From an uncultured delta proteobacterium (GTDB lineage Bacteria > Myxococcota_A > Polyangia > Fen-1088): DNA of 64,000 bases. The notes below the pieces were generated by a model that had not been told where the DNA came from, ran no database searches, and worked only from the letters and a program-made list of their open reading frames with translations. Of this stretch, positions 8,783 to 55,252 are shown one piece after another; position 1 is the first letter of the stretch, and each line of letters begins with the position of its first letter. A program made the position numbers and the translations under genes. The DNA is taken from positions 64,001 to 128,000 of the forward strand of contig CAVTRY010000016.1 in assembly GCA_963737265.1 (NCBI GenBank), written 5' to 3'.

Positions 8783-8816
8783 GGTTTCGAAACCGCTTGG
8801 TGCAAGTTTCGAAACT
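8783..8816. promoter_or_regulatory. Pair of perfect 12-bp palindromes, candidate operator/enhancer
   Basis: GGTTTCGAAACC (8783-8794) and AGTTTCGAAACT (8805-8816), 22 bp apart, in an AT-richer intergenic region. Confidence 0.55.
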
Positions 8817-8930
8817 CGTTCCCAATGAGTGACCCAGAAGGTATCCAAAGTGCCAGTTTCCCTTGAGTCTCTCGAATTCGATGAACATTGATTCTTGAGC
8901 TAAACCAGCGTTCGTGAAACCATTTGGACC

Positions 8931-10094: not shown

Positions 10095-10148
10095 GAGAGG
10101 GGCGTGGATGGAGACCTTGGATGGTCGCGGGCGTGGACCCCGTGAAAC

Positions 10149-10433: not shown

Positions 10434-10452
10434 CCGGAGCGACGCTTCGCCC

Positions 10453-10560
10453 ATCGAGATGCCTAAGGACGAAGTCGATGCGATCGCTGCCTGGATGCGC
10501 TCGATGACGGGCGCGCCGGATCCCGCCTACATCGCGGCTCCCCGGCTGCCCCCGGGTTGA
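10453..10560 (+). pseudogene. 3' remnant of a cytochrome c peroxidase paralog
   Basis: Translates IEMPKDEVDAIAAWMRSMTGAPDPAYIAAPRLPPG*, matching the C-terminus of 12164-13186 (EEEVYAIADWMRSMTGEPDPDYIAAPELPPGG*). Confidence 0.8.
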
Positions 10561-10566
10561 GGACGG

Positions 10567-38895: not shown

Positions 38896-40782
38896 ATGTC
38901 GCCCGCCGAGAATCCGGCTTGGAGCCAGCCACGACCGTCGTTGCGATCGTTCGGTCGCGCCACTCTGGTACCATCGCCCACCGTGCGGCGGTGGCTCGGC
39001 TCTCGGTGGATCGGGCTCTGCGCGGCAGCGCTGGCGGTCGCCTTGACCCTCCCGTCGCTGGGCAATGGGCTCGGCATCGACGACCACCTCTACCGCGCGC
39101 GGGTTCTGGGCGGCTGGGATGCTGTCCGCTCGACAGCCGACCTGTTTTCATTCGCCGATCCGGGCCGCCCCGCTGACGTGCGCCAGGAAATGGAGAGCGG
39201 CGAGCTCTCCTGGTGGGCGGCGCCGCACTTGCGCTGGCGTTTCCTGCGGCCGCTGCCCGCGCTGCTCCACCATCTCGAATTCCGGCTGTTCGGTCGCGGC
39301 GGGCTGGCGCTCATGCACCTCGAAAGCGTGCTCTGGATGGCGGCCGTCGCCGCCGCTGCAGCGATGCTGTTTCGACGAATGCTCGCACCCTTGTGGATTG
39401 CCGGCCTGGCGGCGGTTCTCTACGCGATAGACGACGCACACGGTTTCGGAGTCGGGTGGCTGGCCAGCCGCTGCACGCTGATGGGGACGTTCTTCGCCAT
39501 CACGTCGCTCATCGCGCACGATCGCTGGCGCAGGAACGGATGGCGGCTTGGTGCGATCCTGGCGCCCGGCGCGCTGCTGGTCGCGCTGCTCTGTACGGAA
39601 GAGTCGGTCGCGGTCGTCGGCTATCTCCTGGCCCACCTGCTGGTGCTCGACGACGCGCCGATGCGACGCCGGATTCGGGCCCTCGCCCCCTACGCGGCGA
39701 CCATCGGCGGCTGGTACCTCTTCCGGCGAGCCCTCGGCTACGGCACCGTCGGTCCAGGTTCTTACACGGATGCCTTCAGTCAGCCGCTGACGTTCAGCGT
39801 GCAGACGCTGGCGCGCATCCCCATCTACGTTCACAGCCAGCTGGGAGCTCTGCCGGCGGATCTGTGGGAGGTGTACTTCGTTCGCCGGGGACTTGGCTGG
39901 GTCATGGTGAGCGCTGGCGTGGCCTTCATGGTCATCATCGGCGCCGGGCTGGGCCGCCTGGTGCTGCGGGACTGGGTGGCTCGGTTCTGGGCGATCGGGG
40001 GCGGCCTCGCGCTGGTCCCGATCTGCGGGGCACATCCGAACGATCGCCATCTCTTCATCGTGGGGCTCGGCGGAGCGGCGTTGGTCGCGCGTTACCTGGC
40101 CGCCTGGGCCGACCGCCGCGCGCCCCAACAGGCTTGCTTGCTCCCCCGGCGAGGCGCCAGCGTACTGGCCGGTTTCTTCGTCCTGGTCCACGTGGTGGTC
40201 GCGCCGATCGCCCTGCCGATCCGGGCTCGGATTCCAGGCGACCTCCATCGAAGTCTCGATCGCATCGACGCGCGAATGCCGCACGACGATGGGCTGGTCG
40301 CGCAAGATCTGGTTCTGGTCAACGTTCCTTTCAAATACCTGTGCAACCTGCCCAGCGTCGTTCGACGTTCCAATGGCGGTCCCTCGCCGGCGCACTGGCG
40401 TTGTCTGGGCGTCTCTTCAGACGACGTGACCGTGAGGAGAGAGGATGACCGGACGTTGGTCCTCGTCCCGTCGGGCGGGTACCTCCGGAGCTTCGAGGAC
40501 ACCAACGTCAGAGCACGCGGAATCCCGTTCGCGCCGGGCGACCGAGTCAGTCTGCCCGGGTTCGAGGTCGCAGTCCGACGTGTCACCTCCGACGGGCGCC
40601 CCCAAGAGGTCGCCTACCGGTTCGATCGATCGCTGGAGGATGCTTCGTTGCGTTGGCTCATCTGGCAGGACGATGCCTATCGACCGTTCGCACCGCCGCC
40701 GCCGGGCCACGCCGTCTCTCTGCATGCCCAGCACTTCGCCTGGGCGGATCTCCTGAGACCCGAGCGGGAGAAATCGCCGTGA
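38896..40782 (+). CDS. Polytopic membrane protein, GT-C/ArnT-like architecture
   Basis: DD after the first TM segment, FLRPL, many TM segments, (K/T)EES motif, soluble C-terminal domain; family is an inference. Confidence 0.55.
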   Translation: MSPAENPAWSQPRPSLRSFGRATLVPSPTVRRWLGSRWIGLCAAALAVALTLPSLGNGLGIDDHLYRARVLGGWDAVRSTADLFSFADPGRPADVRQEMESGELSWWAAPHLRWRFLRPLPALLHHLEFRLFGRGGLALMHLESVLWMAAVAAAAAMLFRRMLAPLWIAGLAAVLYAIDDAHGFGVGWLASRCTLMGTFFAITSLIAHDRWRRNGWRLGAILAPGALLVALLCTEESVAVVGYLLAHLLVLDDAPMRRRIRALAPYAATIGGWYLFRRALGYGTVGPGSYTDAFSQPLTFSVQTLARIPIYVHSQLGALPADLWEVYFVRRGLGWVMVSAGVAFMVIIGAGLGRLVLRDWVARFWAIGGGLALVPICGAHPNDRHLFIVGLGGAALVARYLAAWADRRAPQQACLLPRRGASVLAGFFVLVHVVVAPIALPIRARIPGDLHRSLDRIDARMPHDDGLVAQDLVLVNVPFKYLCNLPSVVRRSNGGPSPAHWRCLGVSSDDVTVRREDDRTLVLVPSGGYLRSFEDTNVRARGIPFAPGDRVSLPGFEVAVRRVTSDGRPQEVAYRFDRSLEDASLRWLIWQDDAYRPFAPPPPGHAVSLHAQHFAWADLLRPEREKSP

Positions 40783-41381
40783 TTGGGCGGGCGACGAAGG
40801 AGCGAACGGTCGGTCTTCTCTTGCTGTTGCTGATGGCGGCGCACACCGTGACTCACCCAGATCGCGGAGCCTGGGTGTTGCTTTCAGCTTGCGACGTGGC
40901 CACCCTCGCGACGGCCATCGGTCTCGGGGCCGGATGGCCGAGGGCCGTCGCGGTGGCCTTTCTCTTCCAGATCTCGATCGGTCTTCCGGCCTTCTTCGTC
41001 GGCCTGGCGACGCATACCTACACACCCAACCTCACGTCGGTCGCGATCCATCTGTTGCCCCCTTTGGCGGGAGGGTGGGCCGTTCGCCGAACGGGTCTGC
41101 CACCTCACGCGTTGGCCGCCGCTCTTCTGGTCTATCTTCTCGTCGTCGTCGCGAGCTTCTTGTTCTCTCCACCCGCGCTCAACGTCAACCTCGTCTTCAC
41201 CGTATGGCCCCCGATTCGCCGGTTGGCCTCCGGGCGCCTGGCGGGGCTGCTCCTCTTCCACGGGGTCGGCCCGCTGATCCTGCTTTCCGTCGGAGAGGCC
41301 GCGCTGCGCCGCGGGTTTCCGGGCACGCTCAGTTCGATACCGGCTCCATCACACGCGCCCCTTCGAGATAGGTCTGGATGA
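40779..41381 (+). CDS. Hypothetical membrane protein
   Basis: GTGA overlap with the previous gene; about 6 hydrophobic segments. Confidence 0.65.
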   Translation: MIGRATKERTVGLLLLLLMAAHTVTHPDRGAWVLLSACDVATLATAIGLGAGWPRAVAVAFLFQISIGLPAFFVGLATHTYTPNLTSVAIHLLPPLAGGWAVRRTGLPPHALAAALLVYLLVVVASFLFSPPALNVNLVFTVWPPIRRLASGRLAGLLLFHGVGPLILLSVGEAALRRGFPGTLSSIPAPSHAPLRDRSG

Positions 41382-42084
41382 CAGACTGAATGTGGGGAAG
41401 CTCTTCGAGCTTCCGAATCCCGGCGATCTCCTCGTCGGTCAGATCGGGGTGCCAGAACTGAAGGAAGACGTTGTATCGGACCTGCGCGCTGCGGTTCCAG
41501 ACCTCGTGCTCGAAGGAGTCGTCGAAGAGGCTGCAGGTCCCCTGTTGCTGGGCCCGGATCTCTCTCGCCACGCGCATCTCGACCCCTTGCGGGATCACCA
41601 GGCCGAAATGGCAGGTCAGCTGGGTGTTGGTGGCGCCGCAGTGGGCGGGAATGTGTGTCCCGGGCAGGAGGCGCGAGACGAATACGGTGCCCGATCGCCG
41701 CGGCACCGCGTCCACCAGCTCCATGAGGCGCGGGAACATACGGACATTGTCGTCCCATCGGTGGCCTCGATAGTCGAGGTAGAGGACGTGCCATTCGCCG
41801 GCATCCGCGCGCTCGTGCAAGATCGGACCGACGTAGTTTCGGAACGTGATCTTCTGCTGCGAAAGGAAAGCGTCGAGCTCTGCTCTGATCGCAGGGTACT
41901 CGTCTTGTAGACGGGTGAGAGAGGGGAAGGCAGCGGCGTCGTGCCACGGCCGCGCCGGCAGATCGGGCAGGTAGAACCGGGGACGTTGCAGTGGGTCCTC
42001 GGGCGGGAAGAGCGGCGGCTCCCCGGCCTGATCCCGGCGGAGCACCTCGGGCAGATTTTCGAACAGCTTCAGCAACCTCTTCAT
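41329..42084 (-). CDS. Aspartyl/asparaginyl beta-hydroxylase-domain Fe/2OG enzyme (LpxO-related superfamily)
   Basis: SRLLPGTHIPAHCG, CHFGL, FDDSFEHEVWN. Confidence 0.9.
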   Translation of the reverse strand: MKRLLKLFENLPEVLRRDQAGEPPLFPPEDPLQRPRFYLPDLPARPWHDAAAFPSLTRLQDEYPAIRAELDAFLSQQKITFRNYVGPILHERADAGEWHVLYLDYRGHRWDDNVRMFPRLMELVDAVPRRSGTVFVSRLLPGTHIPAHCGATNTQLTCHFGLVIPQGVEMRVAREIRAQQQGTCSLFDDSFEHEVWNRSAQVRYNVFLQFWHPDLTDEEIAGIRKLEELPHIQSVIQTYLEGARVMEPVSN

Positions 42085-42862
42085 GCCCGCAAATCATACA
42101 ATGCGCGTGCCAGGAACAGCCATGGTGGTGCTCATCGTGATTGGAGTCGCGTTGGCGATGTTCGTCGCCGAACGCGCCCGGCCCGGAAGGGTCTGGCCGA
42201 ACGTGTCCGGTTGGTGGGCGCGCGCGGCACTGGCGAATGGACTTCAGATTGCGGCGGTCTTTCTGGCGGGTGTGACCTGGGAGCCTTGGTTCCGGCGCCA
42301 TCGCCTGCTCTCGCTCCGCGAGCTTGGGTTCGGAACAGAGGTCATCGTCGGCTACCTCGTGAACGCGGTCACGCTCTACTGGACGCACCGCGCGCGACAC
42401 GAGATCGCCCTTCTCTGGCGCTGGCTGCACCAACTCCACCACAGTCCTTCGCGGGTCGAGATCCTCACCGCGTTCTACAAACACCCGCTCGAGATCTGCG
42501 CGGAGTCCATTCTCGCCGCCGCGATCCTGTACCTCGGCCTGGGCCTCGCGCCGCGGGCCGTGCTCGTCATCTCCGTGGTGAGCGGCTCGCTGGGCCTCTT
42601 CTATCACTGGAACGTGGCGACGCCGCGGTGGCTCGGCTACATCGTGCAGCGACCCGAGAGCCACTGCATTCACCACCAGCAGGGCGTCCACGCCTACAAC
42701 TACTCGGAGCTGCCGCTCCTCGACATGATCTTCGGGACCTTTCGAAACCCGCCGACCTTCAGCGGTGTGTGCGGCTTCGACACCGGCCGCGAGGAACGGT
42801 TTGTCGCACTCTTGCTCGGGCAGGACGTGAACGCGGAACGGACCGTCAGCCCTAAATCGTGA
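42083..42862 (+). CDS. Sterol desaturase/fatty acid hydroxylase family protein
   Basis: His boxes HRARH, HQLHHS, HCIHH; HPLE; DMIFGTF. Confidence 0.9.
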   Translation: MPANHTMRVPGTAMVVLIVIGVALAMFVAERARPGRVWPNVSGWWARAALANGLQIAAVFLAGVTWEPWFRRHRLLSLRELGFGTEVIVGYLVNAVTLYWTHRARHEIALLWRWLHQLHHSPSRVEILTAFYKHPLEICAESILAAAILYLGLGLAPRAVLVISVVSGSLGLFYHWNVATPRWLGYIVQRPESHCIHHQQGVHAYNYSELPLLDMIFGTFRNPPTFSGVCGFDTGREERFVALLLGQDVNAERTVSPKS

Positions 42863-43817
42863 GGACGATCTTGCCGAACGTCCGCCGACTGGCCAGAAGG
42901 TCGTGTGCCCGGCGAATCTCCTGCAAGGCAAGGACCTGGCCCACCTGGGGGCGGACGGAGCCGTCCGCCAGCCAGGTCCAGAGGCGCGTCGCGAGAGCGG
43001 AGGCCAGCTCGGCCCGCTCGAGCAGGGAACGGAGGTGGAAGCCCAGCACCCCGCGCGACCGGTGCAAGAGCTTCAGGGGGTCGATGGTCACGCGCTCGCC
43101 GCTGGAGATGCCGACCAGGATCTGCCGACCGAAGGAGCCGAGGAGCGCAAAGGTTCTCTGGGAGACGACCCCCCCGATGGAGTCGATTGCAAGGTCGAGC
43201 CCCCGATCGTTCGAGAGCTTCCGCACCTCGGCGTCGAACACGTCGTAGCCGCACACGATTTCGGCACCGAGCGCCGTCACGCGGTCGATTTTCTCGGGGC
43301 TTGAAACCGTCGCGACCACGCGGAGACCGAGACAGCGTGCAACCTGAACGGCCATTGTGCCGAGGGCGCCAGCCCCGGCGTGCACGAGCGCCGTCTCACC
43401 CTCGACAGCGTGGCCCGAGACGATCAGCGCACCTCCCGCGGTGAGGAGCGATACGGCGACCGCCGCGCCACTCGGAGCTGGGACAGCGTCGGGCAGCGGG
43501 AAGCAAGCCGAGGCGGGCACCACGGCTCGTTCCGCGGCCAGTCCGGTCACAGCAATCGCGCAAACGCGGGTGCCGAGCGGCGGCGCGCCGACGCCAGGAC
43601 CGTGAGCGGCGACAATTCCTTCCGCTTCCTGGCCCGCGATGAACGGCGGACGCGGACCACCCGGGTATTGCCCCGCGCGCTGAAGCAGATCCGACCAGTT
43701 GAGCCCCAAGGCCGTCACATTGAGGAGCAACTCCCCAGGGCCAGGTACAGGTTCCGGAACGTCGACCAGCTCCAGAACCTCCGGCCCACCGAAGCCGATC
43801 ACGCGAACGGCTTTCAC
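42852..43817 (-). CDS. MDR-family NADPH:quinone/enoyl reductase-like oxidoreductase
   Basis: FGGPEVL, GQEAEG, HAGAGALG, GKIVL. Confidence 0.9.
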   Translation of the reverse strand: MKAVRVIGFGGPEVLELVDVPEPVPGPGELLLNVTALGLNWSDLLQRAGQYPGGPRPPFIAGQEAEGIVAAHGPGVGAPPLGTRVCAIAVTGLAAERAVVPASACFPLPDAVPAPSGAAVAVSLLTAGGALIVSGHAVEGETALVHAGAGALGTMAVQVARCLGLRVVATVSSPEKIDRVTALGAEIVCGYDVFDAEVRKLSNDRGLDLAIDSIGGVVSQRTFALLGSFGRQILVGISSGERVTIDPLKLLHRSRGVLGFHLRSLLERAELASALATRLWTWLADGSVRPQVGQVLALQEIRRAHDLLASRRTFGKIVLTI

Positions 43818-44890
43818 TTGTCCCTCGCAATTCGACGGGCCACGAAGGCCGCATCGCGGCCAATTCCCCGGAGGTAGGGAGACGCGAGCGTGCGAACGAA
43901 GCGGGTCCCCAGAAGATAAAGGCGTGGCGTTCGCGTGCTCTCGCAGCGACGCGCGCGCGGCCACCCATCGCGGTCACGCTCGACGAGATCGCCGAGGTGC
44001 TCTGTGCGGTGAATGAAGCCGGTGGCGAAGACGAGGAGATCGGGTTTAAGCGACCGGGCGGGACCGCCGGCTTTGTCCGGGCTCAGCTGCACGGCCTCGG
44101 CGTCGTAGCGCGCCACCGCAGGGAGGCGCTCGATGGCCCCGGCGCGAATGGCCCGCGGCACCGCAAAGCCGAACATGCCGTCCTTGGGCGCCACCCAGGG
44201 ACCGATCGGACGCGCGGGAAGATGCTCCGGCAGCCAGGAGAGGTAGTGCACGTCGAGTCCCAGTATTCGGCTTGGTATTGCCCGCAGCGGTGAGCGCAGC
44301 GAGATCGAGGCTCGCCCATCTGGCCGGTGCGTCCGCAACCAAATCCCCAACACCTCCGCCGCGGAAGCGCCGCCGCCCACGACGAGCATCCGCTCGGCCG
44401 TCGAGATACGATCGGCGCGCGCGTCGACGCTGTGAATCCAGGGAAGCCGGCTGGTGGCTGGAGCAAAGTCAGGGGGCAGCTTGGGCGCGCTCACGATCCC
44501 GGTGGCATTGACGACGTGGGAGGCCGGCAGCGACCGCGCTGCAGCACCCACGCGCGCATGAACCACGAATCCCTCAGCCGTGCGCTCGACCCCGGTCGCT
44601 TCGGCCCCGGTGATGACCTCGATCGCGTTTTCAGTGCGGTACGCGTCCAGGGCGTCCAAGAACTGACCGAAGGTGGGATAGGCCGGTTTGCCGACATCGA
44701 GGCGCATTCCGGGCAGTCGAGACAGCCGAGCTGGCGAGAACAGCTTCATCTCCGGATCGACCCGGCGCAGCCCGGCGGCGGCGCTGCCGCCGCGTTCCAG
44801 CAACGAACAGGAGATCCCACGCTTGGTGAGGGAGACGGCCGCCGCGAGGCCTGCCGGACCCGCGCCGATGATCACCACGTGCGCTTTCAC
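43814..44890 (-). CDS. FAD/NAD(P)-dependent oxidoreductase (flavin monooxygenase-like)
   Basis: IIGAGPAGL, NATG, VVGGGASA, FATGF; GTGA overlaps with both neighbours. Confidence 0.85.
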   Translation of the reverse strand: MKAHVVIIGAGPAGLAAAVSLTKRGISCSLLERGGSAAAGLRRVDPEMKLFSPARLSRLPGMRLDVGKPAYPTFGQFLDALDAYRTENAIEVITGAEATGVERTAEGFVVHARVGAAARSLPASHVVNATGIVSAPKLPPDFAPATSRLPWIHSVDARADRISTAERMLVVGGGASAAEVLGIWLRTHRPDGRASISLRSPLRAIPSRILGLDVHYLSWLPEHLPARPIGPWVAPKDGMFGFAVPRAIRAGAIERLPAVARYDAEAVQLSPDKAGGPARSLKPDLLVFATGFIHRTEHLGDLVERDRDGWPRARRCESTRTPRLYLLGTRFVRTLASPYLRGIGRDAAFVARRIARDK

Positions 44891-45363
44891 GTCAGGGCAC
44901 GCGCCTTCCAGGCCGCCAGGCGCTCGCGATAGCGGCGGATAGCCTCGGCCCAGGTGGCGTCCGCCTCGCGAAGAGCCATCACCAGCTCGGCGCGACAGAG
45001 CATCTCGCCACCTTCTCGGGCGAGCGACGTCGCCACGGCGACGCTGGACGGCTCGGCGCGCTTCACCCGAGCTGAGATCACCAGCCGGGCCGGCAAAACC
45101 GCCGGTTGGAGAAAGGCGGCGTGGCGAACGAGGCCGAGGAATGCCCAGCGTGGGGTGGCGTGACGGAGCGCGGTCACCTCCTCCGCCAGTGGCCCCGCGA
45201 TCTGGGCGCACAGCTCGATCTGAAGGGAGCCCGGGAGAACCGGAGCGCCCACGAAGTGGTCGGCCAAAAAAGGGAAGGAGGGGTGATCGATCGGGATGGT
45301 CGCGCGTCCCGACGCTGCGCCGGCAGCGGCGTCAACCGTCAGCGATTCCATCAGCTCGAACAT
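44887..45363 (-). CDS. FabZ/FabA-like hot-dog dehydratase
   Basis: DHFVGAPVLPGSLQIE with catalytic His/Glu. Confidence 0.85.
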   Translation of the reverse strand: MFELMESLTVDAAAGAASGRATIPIDHPSFPFLADHFVGAPVLPGSLQIELCAQIAGPLAEEVTALRHATPRWAFLGLVRHAAFLQPAVLPARLVISARVKRAEPSSVAVATSLAREGGEMLCRAELVMALREADATWAEAIRRYRERLAAWKARALT

Positions 45364-45776
45364 GCACGCCGCGTTTCCACAAGGAGATGGTCGACCAGGC
45401 GACCGATTGCCCCGACCGTGCAGTATCTCGGCAAGGTGGCTACGTCGATCTGGGCGGGAAACAGCTCGCCGGGCGTGTCGGGCAAGAGCGCCATCAAACG
45501 TTGGCGACCGAGCGGCAGCAAGGCGCCGTCCTGGGCAAACTCATCGTCCGGGAGATCGCCGCGCGCCAGCCGATAGAGGGTCCCCTCGGCGATCACCACG
45601 CCGAAGGTGTCTTCCACCCTGAAGAGAAAATCGAGCAAATCCATCGACGTGAATGCCAGGTCGTTGAACAGCAGTTGGGTGGGCTCGATGGCCGCGCTGT
45701 CTGGCCTGGCTTGGGTCTCGCGCACGATCTGTGCGACACGATCAAACGTCGACGACCCTCCGGTTCCGCCGTTCAT
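45351..45776 (-). CDS. Extended acyl carrier protein (about 45-aa insertion)
   Basis: L.NDLAFTSMDLLD...RVEDTFGV..TVGAI ACP pattern; 141 aa. Confidence 0.78.
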   Translation of the reverse strand: MNGGTGGSSTFDRVAQIVRETQARPDSAAIEPTQLLFNDLAFTSMDLLDFLFRVEDTFGVVIAEGTLYRLARGDLPDDEFAQDGALLPLGRQRLMALLPDTPGELFPAQIDVATLPRYCTVGAIGRLVDHLLVETRRACSS

Positions 45777-46939
45777 GAGGCGCCCTCCGGCGGCGGTGAA
45801 ACGATGAGCGCTGCATTCTGGCCGCCCATTCCGAACGAAGACGAGAGCACGGCACGTGTCCGGGTGGAACGAGGCCGGGCGAGGACGTGATCGAGCGCGC
45901 AGTCCTCGTCGGGCTCGGTCAGGTTACAGGTGGGCGGCACGATCCCCGTTCGGCAGGTCTCAATGGCCACCGCGGCCTCCAAGGCCCCGGCGGCGGCCAT
46001 CGCGTGCCCGATCGCGCCCTTGACGCTGGAGACGGGGGTCTGTCGCCAGGTGTCAGCGAAGACCCTTCGCAAGGCGGCGGCTTCGGCGGGATCGCCGGCG
46101 CGTGTACCGGTGCCGTGCGCATTCACCACGTCGACCTCGGCCGCGGCGCATCCGGCGTCCTCCAGGGTTCGGCGCAGGCACAGCTCGGCGCCCAGGCCGT
46201 CGAGGGGAGGGCGATTGAGGTCGTGAGCGTCCTGGCTGACCCCGAAACCGCGCAACTCGGCGAGCGGCTCTGCCCCGCGGGCACGCGCGCCAGCGAGCGT
46301 CTCGAGGACCAGCGCGGCGCCCCCTTCGCCGAGCGCCACCCCGCGGCGCCGCCGATCAAATGGGCGGCAGGCAGTCGTCGGATCCTCCCCCGCCTGGTCG
46401 AGCGCGAGGGCCTGGAGCCAGGCGAAACCGAAAATGTAGAAGGGCGTCAGCATGGCTGTCGCGCCCCCCGCCACGCAGATCGCCACCCGGCCACTGCGGA
46501 CGAGATGGAACGCCTCCCCAATCGCGTGGGTCGCGGAGGCGCAGGCGGCGGCGATCATTCGCCGGGGATGGGCGAACCGCCCGGCCAACACCGAGAAGCA
46601 GGCGCCCGACGATCGCTCGACCGGACCGTCCGGACCTGGCCCCGAGGTGTCGAGTCCCGTCGACCACAAGAAGCCAGCTCGCTCCGGACTGATTCGAGCG
46701 TGAGCCAGCGCATCGTCGATGGGACGTCGGCTCATCTCGACGTCTCTCGCCGGGAGATCCCAGGGCAGCAGGTCGACGCCGCCGCCGACGGTGACGGGCA
46801 GGCCTGCGGTCACGAAGCGAGGCACCTGTCGGATCGCTGAGCGTCCCGCCACCAAGCCAGCCCACAGCTCGTCGACTGTCCCTCCAAACGGAGAGATCAC
46901 GCCCAGGCCCGTCACGACGACCCGCGCCCCCTCGCTCAT
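45773..46939 (-). CDS. Beta-ketoacyl-ACP synthase (FabF-like)
   Basis: VVVTGLG, AACASA, PFD..R.G..LGEG, HGTGT, KGAIGH, SSSFGMGG. Confidence 0.93.
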   Translation of the reverse strand: MSEGARVVVTGLGVISPFGGTVDELWAGLVAGRSAIRQVPRFVTAGLPVTVGGGVDLLPWDLPARDVEMSRRPIDDALAHARISPERAGFLWSTGLDTSGPGPDGPVERSSGACFSVLAGRFAHPRRMIAAACASATHAIGEAFHLVRSGRVAICVAGGATAMLTPFYIFGFAWLQALALDQAGEDPTTACRPFDRRRRGVALGEGGAALVLETLAGARARGAEPLAELRGFGVSQDAHDLNRPPLDGLGAELCLRRTLEDAGCAAAEVDVVNAHGTGTRAGDPAEAAALRRVFADTWRQTPVSSVKGAIGHAMAAAGALEAAVAIETCRTGIVPPTCNLTEPDEDCALDHVLARPRSTRTRAVLSSSFGMGGQNAALIVSPPPEGAS

Positions 46940-47673
46940 GCGACCTCGGAAATGATCGACACGTGATCGAAGCCGTCACCGTCGTCGACCGGGACGTCGT
47001 AGACATGTCGGCCGCGCGGGCAGACCGCGAGGGTGGCCAGCCAGTGGAGGAGTCCCTGCGCCGCGTGGAGGTGGGGGGCCCGCGCGCGTTCGTCGGACAA
47101 CCGCCTTCGATCGACGGCCACCAACCGGACTGTCCGACCGGCGGTGCCGAGGGGCCTCGGATCAGAGGAGAACAAAAGAGCGACGCCCGCACCGGTTCGC
47201 CCGGTCTCGTCCTGATCTCCCGCCAGGATCAAGGTCTCGACAGCCGCTCGGCCTTGCCTGCGCTCGAGGACGAATTCGAGCGCGCACCAACTCTGCCCTG
47301 GCGCGCCGCCCAGGCCCAGAAAAGGTGCCCGGTTCCCGAGCGCGATGGCCAGCGACGACAGAGCCAGGTTGTCGATCGCGTGGAGCGTGTAGGTCGGGTT
47401 CACCCGCACCGCGCTCGCGCGACCGGTTTCATGCAGCGCCCTTTCGAACTGGAGGGTGGCCCGCCAAAGCTCCGGTGAGCCGGGACGGCAGGGAGAGAGC
47501 GACACCAGCGCGACCTGGGTCTTGTCCCTGGCGGCGGATGCGGCGGTGTGGGCAGCGGCGAGGGCCAGCTTGACCGGCAGATTGAAGCGCCGGAAATCGC
47601 GCCCGAGATCGACCGCCGCCGCATCGAGCGCGGACGCATCGTGTGCTTCGGCGACACAAACGATGAAGCTCAC
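46936..47673 (-). CDS. Truncated ketosynthase-like partner (chain-length-factor-like)
   Basis: RRFN...KLAL and NPTYTLHAIDN resemble the KS N-terminal domain; no catalytic Cys/His; coupled to the KS gene. Confidence 0.55.
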   Translation of the reverse strand: MSFIVCVAEAHDASALDAAAVDLGRDFRRFNLPVKLALAAAHTAASAARDKTQVALVSLSPCRPGSPELWRATLQFERALHETGRASAVRVNPTYTLHAIDNLALSSLAIALGNRAPFLGLGGAPGQSWCALEFVLERRQGRAAVETLILAGDQDETGRTGAGVALLFSSDPRPLGTAGRTVRLVAVDRRRLSDERARAPHLHAAQGLLHWLATLAVCPRGRHVYDVPVDDGDGFDHVSIISEVA

Positions 47674-48290
47674 GCCTCCTCCGCCCAGGCCAGCGCGAAG
47701 TTCTCTGTCTCGGCGAGGGTGACGGTCGCGCCTGCGCCGAGGCCGGAAATCTGCGCGGTGCCGGCGTCGAGGTGCGACAACCCGAGGTGCGCGTCGAGCA
47801 GGGAGGCGATCCCCAGCCCGCGAAGCTTGAGGACGCACTCGAGCGCTGCCCAGGTGGCGCAGGGTGAAAGCGGCGCACCGCTGCCACCGCCGATGCCATC
47901 GCCGATGCCATCGATCGACAGGCGACCCAGCAGCCGGCGAACGCGATCGTCGTGGCGGGCATCGCACAGATCGATCGCCACGCGCCCCCGCTCTCCTTTG
48001 CGACGGGTCGTCGCCACGGCGACCCAGGCGCCGTCGTGCGACAGCGAGATGGCCAGATCCGGCCGCCCGAGCGCTCTGGGCGCGCCGTCCGAAGCACTGA
48101 CGACGCTCACCGACCTGGCGTCGTCACCGAGCAAGCGACAAAGGGCCCGACGGGCCGCCACGCGCCCCGCGATCCATTCCGTCCTCCGTCGGGTCCCGAA
48201 GCACGCCTCGGCCAGACAGCGGCGTTCGGGGCCTGTCAGAAGATCCTCTCGCCCGTCGAGCCCTTCACGGTCGAAGACGGTGACCAGCAT
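47670..48290 (-). CDS. 4'-phosphopantetheinyl transferase family protein
   Basis: RRTEWIAGR.AAR, ISLSHD, VAIDL, WAALECVLK. Confidence 0.82.
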   Translation of the reverse strand: MLVTVFDREGLDGREDLLTGPERRCLAEACFGTRRRTEWIAGRVAARRALCRLLGDDARSVSVVSASDGAPRALGRPDLAISLSHDGAWVAVATTRRKGERGRVAIDLCDARHDDRVRRLLGRLSIDGIGDGIGGGSGAPLSPCATWAALECVLKLRGLGIASLLDAHLGLSHLDAGTAQISGLGAGATVTLAETENFALAWAEEA

Positions 48291-48292
48291 CT

Positions 48293-48562
48293 TCAGGTGG
48301 TCTCCAGGGCGGCGTCGATCATCGTCGCCAGCCTGCGCAGGGTCACCCCCCCCACCACCGCTTTGGCGAGCATCTCTTTGGTCACCCGCATGTGATAGCG
48401 ATCTTCGATCGCCACGACCACGCCCAGGACGATGACCGACGAGAAGGGGACTACGGAGTCGAGAGGCTGGTCCTCGGGGCAGGTCTCGACGGGCAAGGCC
48501 AGCGTCGAATCCGGCGCCGCGGCGACGACGAGCTTGCGCAGATCATCGATGGCGACCGGCAT
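48293..48562 (-). CDS. Acyl carrier protein
   Basis: 89 aa; PL....FSSVIVL..VVAIEDRY..TLRRLA..I pattern; position in the cluster. Confidence 0.72.
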   Translation of the reverse strand: MPVAIDDLRKLVVAAAPDSTLALPVETCPEDQPLDSVVPFSSVIVLGVVVAIEDRYHMRVTKEMLAKAVVGGVTLRRLATMIDAALETT

Positions 48563-48566
48563 GGCG

Positions 48567-50159
48567 TCAGGAGACGACAGGCAGGCGGATCTTGCCGGAT
48601 GCGTCCGGGGGGCCGCTCGAATCGAGACGCACGGGTGCCGGCGACAGCGGCTCCGCTTGCGGGAAGAAACGCTCGTCTTTGTGGCGGTAGAGGTTGTTGT
48701 ACGAGCACCCGGGCATGAGGCGGCCGTCGGGCATCACGTAGTGGGTGCAGCACTTCTTGAGCCGGGCCACGTCCAGGTCGTAGCCGTCCATGAAGGCGTG
48801 GATGAAGATCGCCTTCGAGCGCGCCTCGGTCCGGCGCTCGATGTCAGACGCGGAGAGGGGATTCTTGGAGGTGAAGGTGTCCTTGAGGAAGCCCTTGAGG
48901 GAGTCCAGGATGACGTCCGAGTTTTCCCCGACCTTGGTCGCCGACCAGAGGTTGGTGATGGACGTCAGAATCATCTTCTCCAGCTGGTCGTCGGTGCGCA
49001 GGATCGCTTGGTTCGCCATGGCGTCGAGGTACTGGCGGATGTCGACGAACTCCGGCAATGGCAGGTAGCTCCCGTCGTTCATCCGGAACAGATAGGTCGC
49101 CGTGTAGCAGCTCGGGTGCGAGCAGGGGACCGGATGAAAGTGGCTCTTCTTCAGCCATCCCGTGCCTCTCTCAATCAAGTCATGGACCTCGGGCATCGTG
49201 AGGCGATGTCCAGCTGGGGTGGCGTGAAAGCCATCGCCGCCGTCGCCGGTGTGGGCCATCGGCTGGATGACGATGCTGGAGCATTGCCGGAGCTCGACAC
49301 CGAAGTTCACCAGATCGCCCAGCTCGTCCGAGTTGTCCCCCTTCGACACGGTCGGGACGAGCACGGTCGGGATGTCCAGCTCGCGAATCACGTCGATGGC
49401 CTTCATCTTCATGTCGATGAGCTCGACGCCGCGGAGCTTGGGGTAGACGTTCGGGCGGAGGGTGTCGAACTGCAGGGAGGCGTAGGCGCCGCTCGCCTTG
49501 AAGCGCTCGGCGAAGACCGGATCGTTGGCGATCCGGCGTCCGTGCGTGGAGACCAGGACGCGGCGCACCCTGCCGGCGTGGGGACCACGCAGGATGTAGT
49601 CGACGAAGTCGAAGAACTGCGGGTGCAACGTGGGCTCGCCGCCCGACAAGAAGATGGTCGCCAGCTCGCCCTCCTTCTCGATGAGCAGATCGACGCCACG
49701 TTTGAAGTGCTCGAACGAGATTGAATACTGCTGCTGGTTCCGGACGATGCAGATCGGGCAGGTCAGGTCGCACTTGTCGTTGATCTCGAAGATCGGCGAG
49801 CAGGTGTGCTGAAGGTGGTCCTCGCAGAGCCCGCAATCGAGAGGGCAGCCGTGCTCGACCTTGGTGGCAAAGCCCAGAGGCAACGTCCCCGGCTTGGTGT
49901 AGGTCAGCGACTTGACGTAGTAGTCGGCGTCGGAAGAGATGAGGACGTCGAAGTACCCGTGCGCGGTGCACTTCTTCTGCATGAACACCTGGCCACCCCG
50001 AAGGACGATGTGGGCGTCGATCACCTTCCGGCAAGACGGGCAAATCGACCGCGTGAATCCGAAGAAGGCGCTGTCGCGATCCCGTTTGCTAGGTACCGGT
50101 TCCATCGGCAAACGTTGAAGCAACTCTTGCGCCGTGTCTACTGCCCTGTCCGGGCGCAC
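48567..50159 (-). CDS. Radical SAM protein of the MJ0619/tetraether synthase (Tes, GDGT-MAS) family
   Basis: TRSICPSC..KKCTAHG, GCPLDCGLCEDH.QHTC, CDLTCPIC, SGGEPTLHP, LQFD, PCSHPSC, FMD.Y..D..RLKKCC.HY..PDGR..P.C.YN. Alternative start at 50105. Confidence 0.88.
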   Translation of the reverse strand: MRPDRAVDTAQELLQRLPMEPVPSKRDRDSAFFGFTRSICPSCRKVIDAHIVLRGGQVFMQKKCTAHGYFDVLISSDADYYVKSLTYTKPGTLPLGFATKVEHGCPLDCGLCEDHLQHTCSPIFEINDKCDLTCPICIVRNQQQYSISFEHFKRGVDLLIEKEGELATIFLSGGEPTLHPQFFDFVDYILRGPHAGRVRRVLVSTHGRRIANDPVFAERFKASGAYASLQFDTLRPNVYPKLRGVELIDMKMKAIDVIRELDIPTVLVPTVSKGDNSDELGDLVNFGVELRQCSSIVIQPMAHTGDGGDGFHATPAGHRLTMPEVHDLIERGTGWLKKSHFHPVPCSHPSCYTATYLFRMNDGSYLPLPEFVDIRQYLDAMANQAILRTDDQLEKMILTSITNLWSATKVGENSDVILDSLKGFLKDTFTSKNPLSASDIERRTEARSKAIFIHAFMDGYDLDVARLKKCCTHYVMPDGRLMPGCSYNNLYRHKDERFFPQAEPLSPAPVRLDSSGPPDASGKIRLPVVS

Positions 50160-50218
50160 GGTGACCGCCCAAAATCGGACAGATGGGACGGACAGATCGG
50201 ACGCTTCCTGTCAGCAAT

Positions 50219-50620
50219 TCACCGAGCTCGCGTCCCCATGAGCCGATTGAGCCTCGGAGCCGCGAAAACCGCCACGCCAGCCAGAGCCACCCCGGCAGCG
50301 ACGTCGGTCACATAATGCATGCGCAGGTAGATCGTCGAAACGTAGAGGCCAAGTCCGACGGGGAGCATCACCAGGAAGACCGCCCGCCGAAACCGGTAAG
50401 CGAAGACGAGCGCCACGGTCATGTGAGCCGCGTGCAGTGAAGGGAAACAATCGCGCGCGACCCCGCGGAAGTCGTCGACAGCCTTGAGGAATACCGGGGA
50501 ATATCCGCCGCCCGGAAGGCGCGTCGGGAAGAGGTCGGCTTGGAAGACGTACGGGCCAACCGCAGGCACGAGCAGGTATCCAACGAAACCGAGGACCGCC
50601 GTGAGAGAGCCCGCCGCGGC
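50219..50620 (-). CDS. PAP2-family (Aur1/IPC-synthase-like) membrane protein; 5' part missing at the junction
   Basis: GYLLVPAVGP, DCFPSLH, STIYLRMHYVTD. Confidence 0.85.
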   Translation of the reverse strand, partial: AAAGSLTAVLGFVGYLLVPAVGPYVFQADLFPTRLPGGGYSPVFLKAVDDFRGVARDCFPSLHAAHMTVALVFAYRFRRAVFLVMLPVGLGLYVSTIYLRMHYVTDVAAGVALAGVAVFAAPRLNRLMGTRAR

Positions 50621-51942
50621 GGCAAATTTTCCGCCAGGAGCGACGCATATTGAGAGAGCGTGTTGTCATTGACGCGCACGGACTTGCGGCGTGTTTTTGT
50701 AAACCAGCCCCGTGACGGCCAATGCCGCCAGGACAAACACGCCGGCGACAATGAAGGGATTCAAAAATTGAAGCGGCGACGGCGGCGGCGGCGGTTGCGA
50801 GCGGTTGAAGGCCTTTTTGCCAAACACCAGCAGAAAATATCCGCTGTAGTAACCCACGCTCAACGCGATGAGATAGTAAAACGTCAGTCCAAAACCTTTT
50901 TCGCGGGGGCTGAATGGCGGATCAAACATCAGCCAAACGCAGATCAAAAAGAATGATCGCATGCACCACGTGAAACATGAAACTCGCCAGCGCCATGCCC
51001 ATCCGGCTGCTGTCGCCAAAGGACGACTGCCAGCGAATGGCCAGCACGAACAACGGCATCAGGTAAGCCAGTAACAACAACAAGCATCTCAAAATATTGT
51101 TGCGGGTGAATGCACGAGAGAAAATAAAACTTCAGCACGTTATACTGCGGAGCCAGGCTGGATTTCAACGCCAGCCACCAGAACGCACCCGGTATTTTGC
51201 CGGAAACCACCGCCCACGTCGGCAGCAGCAAGGCCAGCGACATCCCCGCCAGACCGCACAACACCATCCATTGGAGAAAACGCAGATTGAAAAAGTTCAG
51301 CCCGCGAATCCAGATGATCGCGGCAATGAACACCGGCAAAAATCCCACCATCGCCCAGTTCTCCGCCATCCCCGCGCCATAGACGGCCGCGGCCAGATAC
51401 AAACGCCCCGCCCGTTCATCCAGCCGGTATTCCAGCAACAACCAGATCACGAATGCGAACAGCAACAGGTCAAACATTTCACCCGTGAAATTCGTCGCGT
51501 GCTCCCAGAACGTCAGTTGCAGACCGCAAACCGCCACCGCCAGAACCGGCGGCAGCCACGCGCTGCCAATCGTCAGAAATGAAAAATCGCTGCGCTCGCG
51601 CCGGCGTTGCGCGTCCGTGCGGTCGTGCGGCAGCAACGCGACCGAACGCGCCAGCAAGCCGAGCGTCACCGCCGCGCACACGGCGGAAAAAACATTCAAC
51701 GCGATGGGAACCTGCGCCGCCGGCAGCCAGCGGAAGGGATAGGTGACGAGAAACAGAAGCGGATTGACCAGTTCCGGCTGCCACGTCCAGCCGGAAATTT
51801 TGGCCACCGCCTCCAGGTTGGGCAGCGACACCCAGCGGTTCAGGGTAAACCCATAAACCGCCAGCGCCGCCGCCGCCAGCAGCCAGGGCAGAAAGCGCGG
51901 AACAAAATTCTTCCGCGGATCAATGCGTGTTTCCGTCGTCAT
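50621..51942 (-). pseudogene. DUF2723-like membrane protein with two frameshifts (about 51075 and 50950), 3' end cut at the junction
   Basis: NVFSAVCAA, TFWEHAT, YGAGMAENW. The reading continues LLAYLMPLFVLAIRW..FGD, then ICVWLMFDPPFSPR, in shifted frames. Confidence 0.6.
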
Positions 51943-53311: not shown

Positions 53312-53510
53312 TCAGCCGGCGGGCTTGCTTTTTTCCGCGATGGCTTGGGAGAAGATGGCGAGCACTTCGGCGCGGGACACGGACCCGACGAGCCGTTTTT
53401 CCTCCGGGCTGTTGACCACGGGCACGTTGCGCAGTTCGTTTTCCAGCACGATCGGCAGCGCGTCGAGCAACCGTTGGCCGGGCGTGAGGAATTTTGGCGG
53501 CGGCCGCATC
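53312..53510 (-). CDS. C-terminal CBS-domain fragment (possibly of a ClC channel), 5' end cut at the junction
   Basis: MRPPP..LTPGQRLLDAL..NVPVVN..RLVGSV. Confidence 0.6.
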
Positions 53511-55252
53511 GCCGCATCGTGAAAGAGGTGCAAGGCGAAGACACCGTGGAAAGCGCCTTCGACCTGCTCGGCCTGCGCAGCCGCATGAAGACCAGCAAGG
53601 GGCACGTGCTGGAGATCGAGCGCAACCTCGTCGGCGACGTAGTGGGCATGAAGGCCGGCGGCGGCCCGGTTGCACCAGGTAGCGCGCCCGCCGCGCAGGC
53701 CGCCCTGCCACCCTGGGAAGCCCGCTTCACCCGCGATCAGCTTGGTCTAGAGGTCGAGCGCACCTTGCCCGGCGGCGTGCGAGCCCGCTGGGAGCGCGAC
53801 AGCGTCGGCCGCCCCGTCAAGCACGAGATCTGGTCTGGCACCACGATGGTGTCCGCCCAGTCCTACACCTGGGAGCCCAACGACCGTCTCAAGATGATCA
53901 TCGATGCCCTCAAGGGCCCCGTGCAGTACCGCCACGACGGCCTGGGCAACCTGATCGGCGCAGCCTACGCCGACGACAAGATCGACCTGCGCATGCCCGA
54001 CGCCGTCGGCAACCTGTTCAAGACCACCGACAAGAAAGACCGCAAGTACGGCCCCGCCGGCCAACTGCTGGAATCGCGCGGCCCCGACGGCGTCACGAAG
54101 TACGAGTACGACCCCGAAGGCAACCTAGCCAAGAAGATCCTGCCCGACGGCGGCGAGTGGAAATACGAGTGGAGCGGCGCCGGCATGCTGGCCAAGGTCA
54201 TCCGCCCCGACGGCAAGACGGTAGAATTCGGCTACGACGCCCTCGGCCGCCGGGTCTGGAAGAAATACGGCGCCAAGACCACCAAGTGGATCTGGGACGG
54301 CAACGTCCCCGTGCACGAATGGGTCGAGGTGGATCCGTCCGTGGAAGCCCCGCCGTCGCAGCAAGAAGCCGTGGAATGGGAAACCGGGCTGACCGCCCGC
54401 AAATTCATGCTGACCAAGCGCTTCGCGCAAGGTCCCCCCTTGTCCGATCCCCTCTCCCACTGGGAGAGGGCTAGGGTGAGGGAAAATGCGACGGGAACAG
54501 CCGCCGCCCCCATCACCTGGGTTTTCGAGCCCGAGTCTTTCGCCCCCCTCGCCAAACTGACCGCCACCGAGCGCTTCGGCATCGTCACCGACCACCTCGG
54601 CACACCCACCGCGATGATCGACGAGCGGGGGAAGACGGTGTGGGGTGCGGACATCGGTGTGTACGGCGACTTGCGAAACGTCGTCGGTGAGAAGGCGGCG
54701 TGTCCGTTTAGGTGGCCCGGGCAGTACGAGGACGAAGAGACGGGGCTGTATTACAACCGGTTCCGGTATTACGACCCGGGGGCAGGGGAGTATGCCAGCC
54801 AGGATCCGATTGGGTTGCGCGGAGGATTTCACTTCGCATCGTATGCGAACGATCCTCTGACGCTCACGGACCCATTGGGTCTGAGCTGCTTGCCACCTGA
54901 TCCTGAGGTTGCCGATGCAATTGCATCGGGACGCCCCATCGTCGTGGTTGGCAGACGCATGTCACGCGTTGATCCCGTTCGCGATGCACTTCGCGCGGCA
55001 GGTGCAAACGTGGAGACATATGAGCCCCGCATTTTCCGTTCCACACCGGCCGCGGTCAATCCGAAGGACGTCAAGGCAAATCGACAATGGATAAGGTATT
55101 GGGCCAAGGACAAGAAGGCGCTTGTCGTTGATATAGGCCATGATCCGAAAGCTCCAGCCGACTCCTCACCGTTCTACGACGTCGAACGGCGAAGCTTGTA
55201 CAACAACTGGAAGGGTGATGTTGACGTTGTTCAATTCGATCCAGGGTTCTGA
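53511..55252 (+). CDS. Rhs protein copy 1 (5'-truncated) with C-terminal toxin domain
   Basis: YD repeats, RWPGQYEDEETGLYYNRFRYYDP, DPIGL..DPLGL, then an approximately 110-aa lower-GC tip. Confidence 0.92.
54449..54482. repeat. BoxC-like palindromic element in frame within the Rhs core (second copy at 58492-58525)
   Basis: CCCCTCTCCCACTGGGAGAGGGCTAGGGTGAGGG; 10-bp inverted repeat. Confidence 0.7.

Follow-up and report, generated by a model that had tools for sequence, protein, structure and literature searches.

A 64,000 nt stretch of the genome assembly of an uncultured delta proteobacterium of the class Polyangia (GCA_963737265.1, contig CAVTRY010000016.1, positions 64,001 to 128,000), here called the window, carries a minus-strand operon of nine genes at 42852-50105, in which an enzyme of the radical S-adenosylmethionine (SAM) type from the Tes/GDGT-MAS family (rSAM) is encoded together with two carrier proteins, a ketosynthase pair and reductive enzymes of fatty acid or polyketide synthesis. 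The feature is real, conserved and uncharacterized, and the cluster probably makes an undescribed modified lipid. By a narrow balance of probability, we favor a dedicated acyl carrier protein (ACP)-dependent reducing assembly line, similar to a type II fatty acid synthase/polyketide synthase (FAS/PKS), whose chain would be tailored by the Tes-like enzyme. Our best reading of this tailoring is radical chemistry on a carrier-bound saturated chain of an envelope lipid; that it is specifically C-C bond formation, by analogy with GDGT-MAS, is a distinctly more tentative suggestion. The first-pass annotation of this DNA, made from the letters alone, had proposed a Tes-like enzyme within an ACP-dependent type II FAS/PKS operon. 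Its description was largely right, apart from the PAP2 gene at the head of the operon, which is truncated, and a ketoreductase (KR) gene, which is missing.

Gene content and layout of the operon

The genes are arranged in the order rSAM, ACP1, PPTase, CLF-like, KS, ACP2, DH, FMO and MDR, as follows.

48567-50105, minus strand: Tes/GDGT-MAS-family radical SAM enzyme (rSAM), 512 aa from the ATG at 50105
48293-48562, minus strand: ACP1, divergent ACP-like protein, 89 aa, directly after the rSAM gene
47670-48290, minus strand: 4′-phosphopantetheinyl transferase (PPTase), Pfam 4PPT_N at E 5e-7
46936-47673, minus strand: chain length factor (CLF)-like protein, a putative short partner of the ketosynthase with a predicted thiolase fold, 245 aa
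45773-46939, minus strand: FabF-like β-ketoacyl synthase (KS), Pfam ketoacyl-synt N and C
45351-45776, minus strand: ACP2, extended ACP, 141 aa, Pfam PP-binding at E 3e-4
44887-45363, minus strand: FabZ/FabA-like hot-dog dehydratase (DH), Pfam FabA at E 9.6e-8
43814-44890, minus strand: small class-B flavin monooxygenase (FMO), 358 aa from the GTG at 44890, Pfam Pyr_redox_3
42852-43817, minus strand: NAD(P)H oxidoreductase of the medium-chain dehydrogenase/reductase (MDR) family, Pfam ADH_N and ADH_zinc_N

Pfam, NCBIfam and start-codon analysis agreed with the gene content, order, strand and overlapping or abutting layout given by the first-pass annotation. The rSAM start was revised from the GTG at 50159 to the ATG at 50105, where the homologs start. 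Overlaps of 4 nt are found at four junctions (PPTase/CLF-like, CLF-like/KS, KS/ACP2 and FMO/MDR), and the DH/FMO overlap is also 4 nt if the FMO starts at the GTG at 44890, while gaps of 4 nt and 2 nt separate rSAM from ACP1 and ACP1 from PPTase, respectively. All nine genes are free of frameshifts and stops, and the G+C content of the window is about 66%. The operon is not a chance arrangement, because its order is kept in related loci and because the 13 genes of a block shared with G067, a genome from another genus of the same family, show dN/dS values of 0.06-0.23.

The labels of ACP1 and the CLF-like protein found no support in Pfam or NCBIfam (no match at E<=0.01), whereas weak profile matches and the predicted fold agree with them. 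In ACP1, the PFSS motif is invariant among twelve orthologs, and Ser42 aligns with the phosphopantetheine serine. The best matches of the ACP1 profile in PDB were ACPs, at E 0.04, and hhalign aligned ACP1 to ACP2 at E 3.6e-4 with a probability of 37%. ACP2 harbors Ser44 within an FTSMD motif and scored below the cut-offs of the NCBIfam ACP models. Its C-terminal extension of about 60 aa contains an LPRYCTVGA block, is conserved in nine relatives and is also found in the version from Bacteriovoracaceae.

The KS contains Cys133, His275 and His312 within AACAS, NAHGTGT and IGHAM, which we take to be the Cys-His-His triad of FabF. It scored 316 bits on the NCBIfam fabF model (cut-off 493.75) and 217.6 bits on AmcF (NF058662; cut-off 325), the latter being the only model to align the whole KS (residues 7-380). 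In PDB, FabF 1J3N matched at 229 bits over residues 121-379 only, and the ishigamide KS at 165 bits. The adjacent CLF-like protein had no PDB sequence match either, and its PDB profile search returned chance-level matches only. Its family comprises 104 representatives at E<=0.001 among 1.84 billion, and a Pfam scan of ten members gave a single weak ketoacyl-synt match, in locus L014. The AlphaFold2 model of the CLF-like protein, built from 52 sequences, reached a pLDDT of 90.8, and Foldseek matched it to condensing enzymes including the aryl-polyene CLF ApeC (6qsp_B, TM 0.56/0.58) and the ishigamide CLF. At the conserved block of the family, the protein has DNLALSS, and no Cys occupies the KS active-site position. 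The model supports a thiolase fold for the putative KS partner, which would form a heterodimer with the KS.

The DH scored 34 bits on the NCBIfam fabZ model, below the cut-off, and carries a His in DHFVG and a Glu in IELCAQ, presumably the catalytic pair as in FabZ. The MDR scored 242 bits on the PIG3-type quinone oxidoreductase model (cut-off 296.8), and its PDB matches include quinone oxidoreductase QOR 1IYZ (154.6 bits) and the enoyl reductase (ER) domain of a fatty acid synthase, 2CF2_D (137.9 bits); from these similarities, it is a probable trans enoyl reductase. The FMO scored 99.5 bits on the ArsO-type model (cut-off 425) and matched 4USR, 4USQ and 4A9W at full length, which were deposited as monooxygenases and are small bacterial flavin monooxygenases.

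The radical SAM enzyme shares its fold and ligands with GDGT-MAS

Pfam recognized in rSAM an N-terminal HMPTM zinc ribbon (Zn_ribbon_HMPTM) followed by the Radical_SAM core. On NCBIfam models, the protein scored 273.6 bits for Tes (NF045702; cut-off 450) and 277.9 bits for TrsS (NF045646; cut-off 490), reaching neither cut-off. Ten bacterial relatives that we scanned likewise scored 256-343 bits on the Tes model, all ten below the cut-offs of both Tes and TrsS. The sole solved relative found by sequence was GDGT-MAS (PDB 7TOL), which aligned end to end at E 7e-58 with 28% identity. The AlphaFold2 model of rSAM (51 sequences, pLDDT 88.2) matched 7TOM and 7TOL in Foldseek at TM-scores of 0.76-0.79 over 507-509 columns (E 2.6e-41), and the next radical SAM structures matched the core alone at about 0.37.

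The first-pass annotation had ascribed to rSAM the full cysteine layout of the MJ0619 family, and the alignment to 7TOL and the columns of an 80-row alignment bear this out. In the numbering of the 512-aa protein, C22-x2-C25-x20-C46-x2-H49 aligns to the rubredoxin-type site of GDGT-MAS, C9-X2-C12-X20-C33-X2-H36 (PMC9433317, excerpt). These columns are conserved in the clade of the window; in part of the other clades, Cys takes the place of the His. There follow C87, C91 and C94 with H97, and C112-x3-C116-x2-C119; GCPLDCGLCEDH and CDLTCPIC align to the N-terminal [4Fe-4S] cluster of GDGT-MAS, which is described with the ligands C73, C77, C80 and a His (PMC9433317, excerpt), and to its CX3CX2C radical SAM motif, in columns that are invariant in 80 of 80 rows. 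The C-terminal cysteines are C328, C333, C452, C453 and C467, and all C-terminal cluster-domain ligands are kept.

Met439, the labile ligand of the C-terminal cluster, is reported to be completely conserved in 1000 archaeal homologs, together with conserved Tyr459, and the M439A variant of GDGT-MAS to retain robust activity (PMC9433317, excerpt). Met439 aligns with His436 of rSAM (His454 when counted from the upstream start of the open reading frame) in an ungapped stretch beside an FMD motif. The column is His in 32 of the 33 rows of clades A and B defined below, with one gap, and Gln in 41 of the 47 clade C rows. Tyr459 is kept, as CCTHY of rSAM aligns with CCIHY of the 7TOL chain; in clades A and B, this column is Tyr in 32 of 33 rows, again with one gap, and Tyr is not the main residue in clade C. 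Residues 330, 436, 455 and 456 are H/H/H/Y in the KS-linked clades and mostly F/Q/E/F-or-I in the stand-alone homologs, so these four positions in the C-terminal domain are a simple sequence signature separating the two groups.

Two further predictions added little to this picture. Helix amphipathicity, a proxy for a second lipid pocket, gave unremarkable values and was not used as evidence, and the complex prediction for rSAM and ACP1 returned a score of 0.00, a 'no answer' that is informative in neither direction.

The placement of rSAM in the Tes family thus stands with regard to fold and ligand layout, whereas the score below the Tes cut-off, the change from Met439 to His and the separation from the clade of stand-alone bacterial homologs set it apart. 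On the alignments and the predicted structure, rSAM is a superfamily member with the GDGT-MAS architecture and not a Tes equivalog, and its sequence relationships place it in a bacterial subfamily of its own within the Tes/GDGT-MAS radical SAM family.

Related loci keep the carrier proteins and ketosynthase

Species-representative genomes were scanned for relatives of rSAM, and the window proteins were compared with all 80 loci obtained. A tree of 80 bacterial rows was built by a quick IQ-TREE search with SH-aLRT support and midpoint rooting; one of 81 sequences is not in it, having fallen under the 400-aa filter or been dropped by the builder. The placement relative to archaeal Tes rests on the HMM scores and the pairwise 7TOL alignment.

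Clade A (14 rows, SH-aLRT 99) consists of the window, 12 loci with 73-79% rSAM identity to it and a Bacteriovoracaceae locus with 50%. The close loci are labeled mostly Pyrinomonadaceae/Acidobacteriota, with one each of Deltaproteobacteria, Thermoanaerobaculia and Candidatus Parabeggiatoa. A KS was found in the locus for 10 of the 14 rows, the other four being short contigs. ACP1 lies directly downstream of rSAM in all 11 close loci with downstream DNA and also in G067, the KS and CLF-like genes are present in 8/8 close loci with >=3 kb downstream, and an MDR gene is present in 5/5 that are long enough as well as in G067. Upstream, a short-chain dehydrogenase/reductase (SDR) of KR type precedes rSAM in nine of ten close loci with upstream DNA, the exception being L003. 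G067 carries the whole operon order. These comparisons confirm the synteny of rSAM homologs with ACP and KS genes.

The FMO, PPTase and PAP2 genes are variable among relatives. A PPTase was found by tblastn only in L007 and G067, L002 and L010 having no room for one, and the FMO is absent from the same two loci. Acidobacterial versions add a B12-binding radical SAM gene (seven loci), a second KR, a weak condensation-domain protein and an extra KS-like gene, none of which has a close copy in the genome of the window, where the best match to the B12-binding enzyme has 36% identity and lies elsewhere. The Bacteriovoracaceae locus combines rSAM with a FabI-type ER, KRs, DH, CLF-like protein, KS, extended ACP and a GDSL hydrolase.

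The additional B12-binding radical SAM gene, at L007:11908-13230 with orthologs in L004-L009 and L012, is located between ACP1 and PPTase in the acidobacterial and Parabeggiatoa versions. It scored 101.9 bits on the MJ_1487 family (cut-off 251) and 75.7 bits on TIGR04072, the ladderane-linked 'lipid biosynthesis B12-binding/radical SAM' model (cut-off 360).

Clade B contains 19 rows, mostly Myxococcota, with a KS in 14 and rSAM identities of 37-42% to the window. The two clade B loci that were annotated, both of Myxococcota type, carry two or three Tes-like genes each: L015 has three Tes-like radical SAM genes (6298-11395) and one KS, and in L026 two Tes-like genes (5-1708 and 9962-11746) are accompanied by two KS genes and one that is KS-like, as well as by genes for a class-III aminotransferase and a protein of the CMD family. 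Clade C comprises 47 stand-alone rows from Chloroflexota, Actinomycetota, Terriglobia and others, with a KS in 0/47 loci. The KS linkage is thus clade-specific, found in A and B and in none of C, which argues against a chance neighborhood.

The block common to the window (38947-50614) and G067 (C8:262154-273782) spans 11.7 kb with 88% nucleotide identity between different genera. All 13 of its genes are under purifying selection, with dN/dS of 0.06 for rSAM and 0.09-0.23 for the other operon genes. Among 89 genomes of the family, eight have any rSAM match at E<=1e-20, and the clade of the window's rSAM occurs in two, its own genome and G067 (97% identity); no match was found in the 12 other genomes of the genus. 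The 90%-identity cluster of rSAM includes a member named Polyangia bacterium, in line with a genome that is probably of Myxococcota. The 88% identical block across genera, the relatives in Acidobacteriota and the lack of matches within the genus together suggest horizontal transfer, and this distribution fits an accessory, horizontally moving cluster. Synthesis of iso-diabolic acid by the cluster was considered, as the close relatives are Pyrinomonadaceae, and set aside because the cluster is patchy.

Proposed pathway and alternative chemistries

In the pathway that we propose, the PPTase would prime both carrier proteins, and the KS with its short CLF-like partner would extend a chain on ACP2. 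The cluster KR, the FabZ-like DH and the MDR enoyl reductase would convert it to a saturated or largely saturated acyl-ACP, with a housekeeping FabG standing in for the KR that relatives have and the assembly lacks. The conserved core of KR, KS/CLF-like, ACP2, DH and MDR constitutes a complete reducing elongation cycle, from which a saturated chain on a carrier of the cluster's own is to be expected. What sets the cluster apart, and is conserved, is the rSAM-ACP1 pair. Encoded next to ACP1, rSAM would abstract a hydrogen from an unactivated sp3 carbon of the chain, and its C-terminal auxiliary cluster would hold the radical intermediate and form a bond, for which C-C would be the likeliest type (tail coupling or ring closure). 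In GDGT-MAS, the C-terminal cluster is described as trapping the radical intermediate before bond formation (PMC9433317, excerpt). Finally, the FMO would finish the envelope lipid, in the myxobacterial version along with OlsC- and OlsE-like hydroxylases and a PAP2_3 head-group enzyme.

A bolder form of this proposal, which we hold decidedly doubtful, is that rSAM welds the unactivated tail carbons of two saturated chains, carried by ACP1 and ACP2 or made in two turns of the line. If true, an α,ω-bifunctional (bola-type) or macrocyclic acyl chain would be made before its placement in a lipid. Such bacteria would then have a way to spanning or cyclic lipids that depends neither on archaeal Tes, whose substrates are finished lipids, nor on the Thermotoga enzyme Mss, and sp3-sp3 coupling would for the first time be seen on substrates bound to an ACP.

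Several observations weigh against tailoring of a carrier-bound chain by C-C coupling. As rSAM stays below the Tes cut-off, its function is not transferable by equivalence, and since TrsS, which NCBIfam names a radical SAM (seleno)protein and whose model scores as high on rSAM as that of Tes, belongs to the same family, lipid C-C coupling is not the only chemistry of the family. The Met439 position is His in rSAM, a difference to be read with the activity retained by M439A (PMC9433317, excerpt). The identity of ACP1 as an ACP is only weakly indicated by its sequence. The rarity of the cluster in the family and genus speaks against a core membrane pathway, and because the operon is assembled without its head (the KR, 185 codons from the start of PAP2 and presumably the promoter), this copy may not be expressed or complete. 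What the data show are the gene identities, the operon layout, its conservation, purifying selection and a fold and ligand set in common with GDGT-MAS; the carrier-bound substrate, the type of bond and the product are inferred.

The first alternative is that rSAM acts on the carrier-bound chain by a different radical reaction, for instance inserting sulfur, methylating, desaturating or carrying out hydroxylation-type tailoring. The GDGT-MAS intermediate is described as having a C-S bond to a cluster sulfide (PMC9433317, excerpt), and MJ0619 was initially annotated as a methylase according to the same source; the presence of TrsS, with another function, in the family and the His at the Met439 position point in the same direction. 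However, no sulfur-donor, methyl-carrier or B12 gene was found in the operon of the window, the genome has no cluster-type B12 radical SAM enzyme like those of the acidobacterial relatives, and the C-terminal cluster-domain ligands and the Tyr aligned to Tyr459 are all kept. We consider this alternative unlikely.

Second, rSAM could be an ordinary bacterial Tes homolog that couples the tails of finished phospholipids into membrane-spanning lipids of the diabolic acid or branched glycerol dialkyl glycerol tetraether (brGDGT) type, with the FAS-like genes supplying a special fatty acid or being unrelated. Its fold and ligands are those of GDGT-MAS, which binds whole phospholipids and is reported to have carried E. 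coli phospholipids when isolated; for brGDGTs, bacterial Tes homologs were proposed by Zeng et al. (PMC8941075, excerpt), and rSAM is the only Tes-family gene in the genome of the window. Against this, rSAM is tightly coupled in translation and conserved in its adjacency to ACP1, KS and CLF-like genes, the stand-alone homologs group elsewhere in the tree and diverge at the four C-terminal signature positions, and presence in two of 89 family genomes would be odd for a trait of membrane architecture. This explanation therefore appears quite unlikely to us, and tailoring of a carrier-bound chain remains the preferred reading.

The bacterial relatives of the archaeal tetraether synthase have no assigned function, and their activity was still described as unconfirmed in 2025 (PMC11868695, excerpt). 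Genomic 'Tes homologs' are nevertheless counted in surveys as a capacity to make membrane-spanning brGDGT lipids, and these lipids serve as climate proxies. As at least two clades of homologs reside in ACP/ketosynthase operons and differ in C-terminal-domain residues, they should not count as brGDGT markers untested; the KS-linked homologs probably do something other than the stand-alone clade. The compact cluster of 9-11 genes is also a tractable system in which to ask whether Tes-type sp3 C-H chemistry works on chains held by a carrier, and a new lipid or polyketide scaffold could emerge from it.

The upstream end of the operon

The first-pass annotation had included a PAP2 gene as a member of the cluster. 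Such a gene is present, whereas it is a 3′ fragment and is not conserved in the cluster, occurring only in the window and G067.

50219-50614, minus strand: 3′ fragment of a PAP2_3 gene, last 131 codons, Pfam PAP2_3

The open reading frame at 50219-50569 spans only positions 80-188 of the 190 in the PAP2_3 profile (the C-terminal half), and the fragment matches residues 186-317 of G067's intact 317-aa PAP2_3 protein with 92% identity; the intact protein is weakly similar to phosphoinositol dihydroceramide synthase (30.9 bits). In G067, the operon is headed by the SDR/KR gene, followed by intact PAP2_3 and then rSAM. Homology between the window and G067 stops at 50614, inside PAP2, and the assembly of the window contains neither the N-terminal half of PAP2 nor a cluster-type SDR. 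An in-frame TGA at 50666-50668 was rejected as the interruption of PAP2, because homology to the intact gene ends already at 50614.

Contigs of the public run X1 that are identical to the window cover the operon. One of them is window-identical to 50615 and continues with 230 bases that do not fit the window; the first 30 of these match G067 at 27 positions and the window at eight, and translate to the PAP2 residues preceding the shared part. An intact form therefore exists with the window's own sequence. Left of 50615, the sequence is common to G067 and to contigs of runs X1-X3, whose uncovered parts are uninformative owing to low depth, and right of it the G+C content falls to 0.58-0.63. The junction at 50614/50615 is an assembly join or a strain-level rearrangement, and the X1 contig running into intact PAP2 makes an assembly join at least as likely as a real truncation.

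These data bear on the possibility that the copy in the window is a dead remnant, a 5′-truncated operon without promoter, KR and intact PAP2. The end of homology inside PAP2 and the genome assembly devoid of the missing parts would fit such a remnant; the nine genes without frameshift or stop, their dN/dS values (0.06-0.23 across the shared block) and the continuation of the X1 contig into intact PAP2 speak against it, and we regard it as very unlikely. RNA run X13 covered the operon in one 150-nt bin with loose ends on both sides, which speaks neither for nor against transcription.

Right of the junction, 50616-51942 holds a gene for a TMEM260-like (DUF2723-type) membrane protein whose reading is spread over three frames. 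Related contigs from RNA runs (90-95% alike) have one base fewer at 50676 and again at 51078, the frame-shift sites, so single-base insertion errors or genuine frameshifts are probable at these places in the window. As the X13 match to this region is only 90-95% alike, the reads come from other organisms. An RHS-repeat protein gene is located further on (53345-55252, plus strand).

Genes flanking the downstream end

Three genes of the shared block lie beyond the MDR gene.

42083-42862, plus strand: FA_hydroxylase-family membrane di-iron enzyme, OlsE-like, Pfam FA_hydroxylase at E 1.6e-26
41329-42084, minus strand: Asp/Asn β-hydroxylase-family dioxygenase, OlsC/LpxO-like acyl 2-hydroxylase, Pfam Asp_Arg_Hydrox at E 2.7e-41
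38896-40782, plus strand: 628-aa protein without a family, forming the left end of the block common to the window and G067

The FA_hydroxylase gene is convergent with the operon end and scored 64.8 bits on the NCBIfam OlsE model (cut-off 475); its product is 94% identical to that of G067, and the gene adjoins the cluster in L010 too (60%). The Asp/Asn-hydroxylase gene scored 92 bits for OlsC (cut-off 450) and 49.7 bits for LpxO, and is 96% identical to its counterpart in G067 and 68% to that in L010, where it also adjoins the cluster. The 628-aa protein has no Pfam or NCBIfam match and is 88% identical to that of G067 (dN/dS 0.14). Its nearest Atlas clusters are hypothetical proteins of Myxococcota, one with PMT_2 on 11% of members, which serves as a lead only. 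Just outside the shared block are a fatty acid desaturase gene (34276-35205, minus strand) and a Rieske/VanA-type oxygenase gene (35488-36639, plus strand), which add to the nearby genes for oxidation of lipids or aromatics.

Taken together, the hydroxylases, the PAP2 of G067, the MDR, the FMO and the FabF-like KS point to a lipid rather than an aromatic polyketide. Aryl-polyene clusters have two carriers, a KS/CLF pair and a hot-dog DH, as well as the hallmark genes for an adenylating enzyme, an ammonia lyase, a LolA-like protein, an MMPL exporter and glycosyl- and acyltransferases. A variant pigment-type type II PKS of this kind making a polyene, with rSAM as an accessory, would account for the shared genes and for ApeC as the best size-matched structural match of the CLF-like model, and is nevertheless highly improbable, as those TM-scores are only moderate, as the conserved MDR enoyl reductase and the FabI-type ER of the Bacteriovoracaceae version point to saturated chains, and as none of the hallmark genes is among the Pfam matches of the operon and, for the adenylating enzyme, LolA-like, MMPL and transferase genes, its flanks.

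Comparison with known systems

Full-text literature searches found no described pathway with this combination, as the first-pass annotation had supposed, and none of the texts themselves placed a Tes-like enzyme in a KS/ACP cluster, supplementary tables, which may list such proteins among the counted 'Tes homologs', being outside the search.

GDGT-MAS/Tes (MJ0619; 7TOL, 7TOM; NF045702) has the same four-domain architecture as rSAM, with the rubredoxin-type site, the N-terminal Cys3 plus His, the CX3CX2C motif, the Cys-rich C-terminal cluster domain and the Tyr459 position in common. The two differ at Met439, which is His in rSAM, and at C328, an extra conserved Cys where GDGT-MAS has Ser; moreover, rSAM is bacterial and encoded within an ACP/KS operon, whereas GDGT-MAS is associated with archaeal isoprenoid lipid genes. 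The stand-alone bacterial Tes homologs, proposed and unconfirmed brGDGT enzymes (PMC8941075; PMC11868695, excerpts), belong to the same superfamily, share the ligand layout, have 33-38% identity to the rSAM of the window and are also below the Tes cut-off (306-343 bits in five of 47 scanned). They form the separate 47-row clade with no KS in their loci and with other residues at the four C-terminal positions. The multi-Tes FAS-like clusters of clade B are more similar, with a Tes-like radical SAM gene beside KS, DH and ACP and the H/H/H/Y residues as in the window's clade, and differ in having two or three Tes-like genes, another gene order and, in L026, the class-III aminotransferase.

A KS paired with a catalytically dead thiolase-fold partner, as proposed here, is found in ApeO/ApeC (6QSP) and Iga11/Iga12 (6KXD-F). 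ApeC, at 238 aa, is near the CLF-like protein in size and among its top structural matches, with TM-scores of only 0.56-0.58, and neither it nor the ishigamide CLF has detectable sequence similarity to the CLF-like protein. The KS of the window is nearer to FabF than to the ishigamide KS, and the operon has an enoyl reductase. AmcF of cispentacin biosynthesis is a whole-length match of the KS below the cut-off, and the CLF-like protein matches no NCBIfam model; the other enzymes that we take to accompany AmcF are not among the Pfam matches of the operon.

The membrane-spanning lipid synthase Mss of Thermotoga, a radical SAM enzyme joining a pair of fatty acyl tails, is a possible functional analog, likened here by its description only and, according to the excerpted source, only remotely related to Tes (PMC13159169). 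The anammox ladderane 'Cluster I' comprises amxACP, amxFabZ, an amxFabF2/FabFmut heterodimer and radical SAM enzymes (bioRxiv 10.64898/2026.05.19.726425; PMC13459092, excerpts). Its radical SAM enzyme is B12-dependent and not Tes-like, whereas the window operon has no B12 radical SAM gene and the host is not an anammox bacterium, and its inactive partner is a full-length FabF homolog compared with 245 aa in the window. Both systems bring together radical SAM enzymes with an ACP of their own, a FabZ variant and a KS whose partner is, or in the window is predicted to be, inactive.

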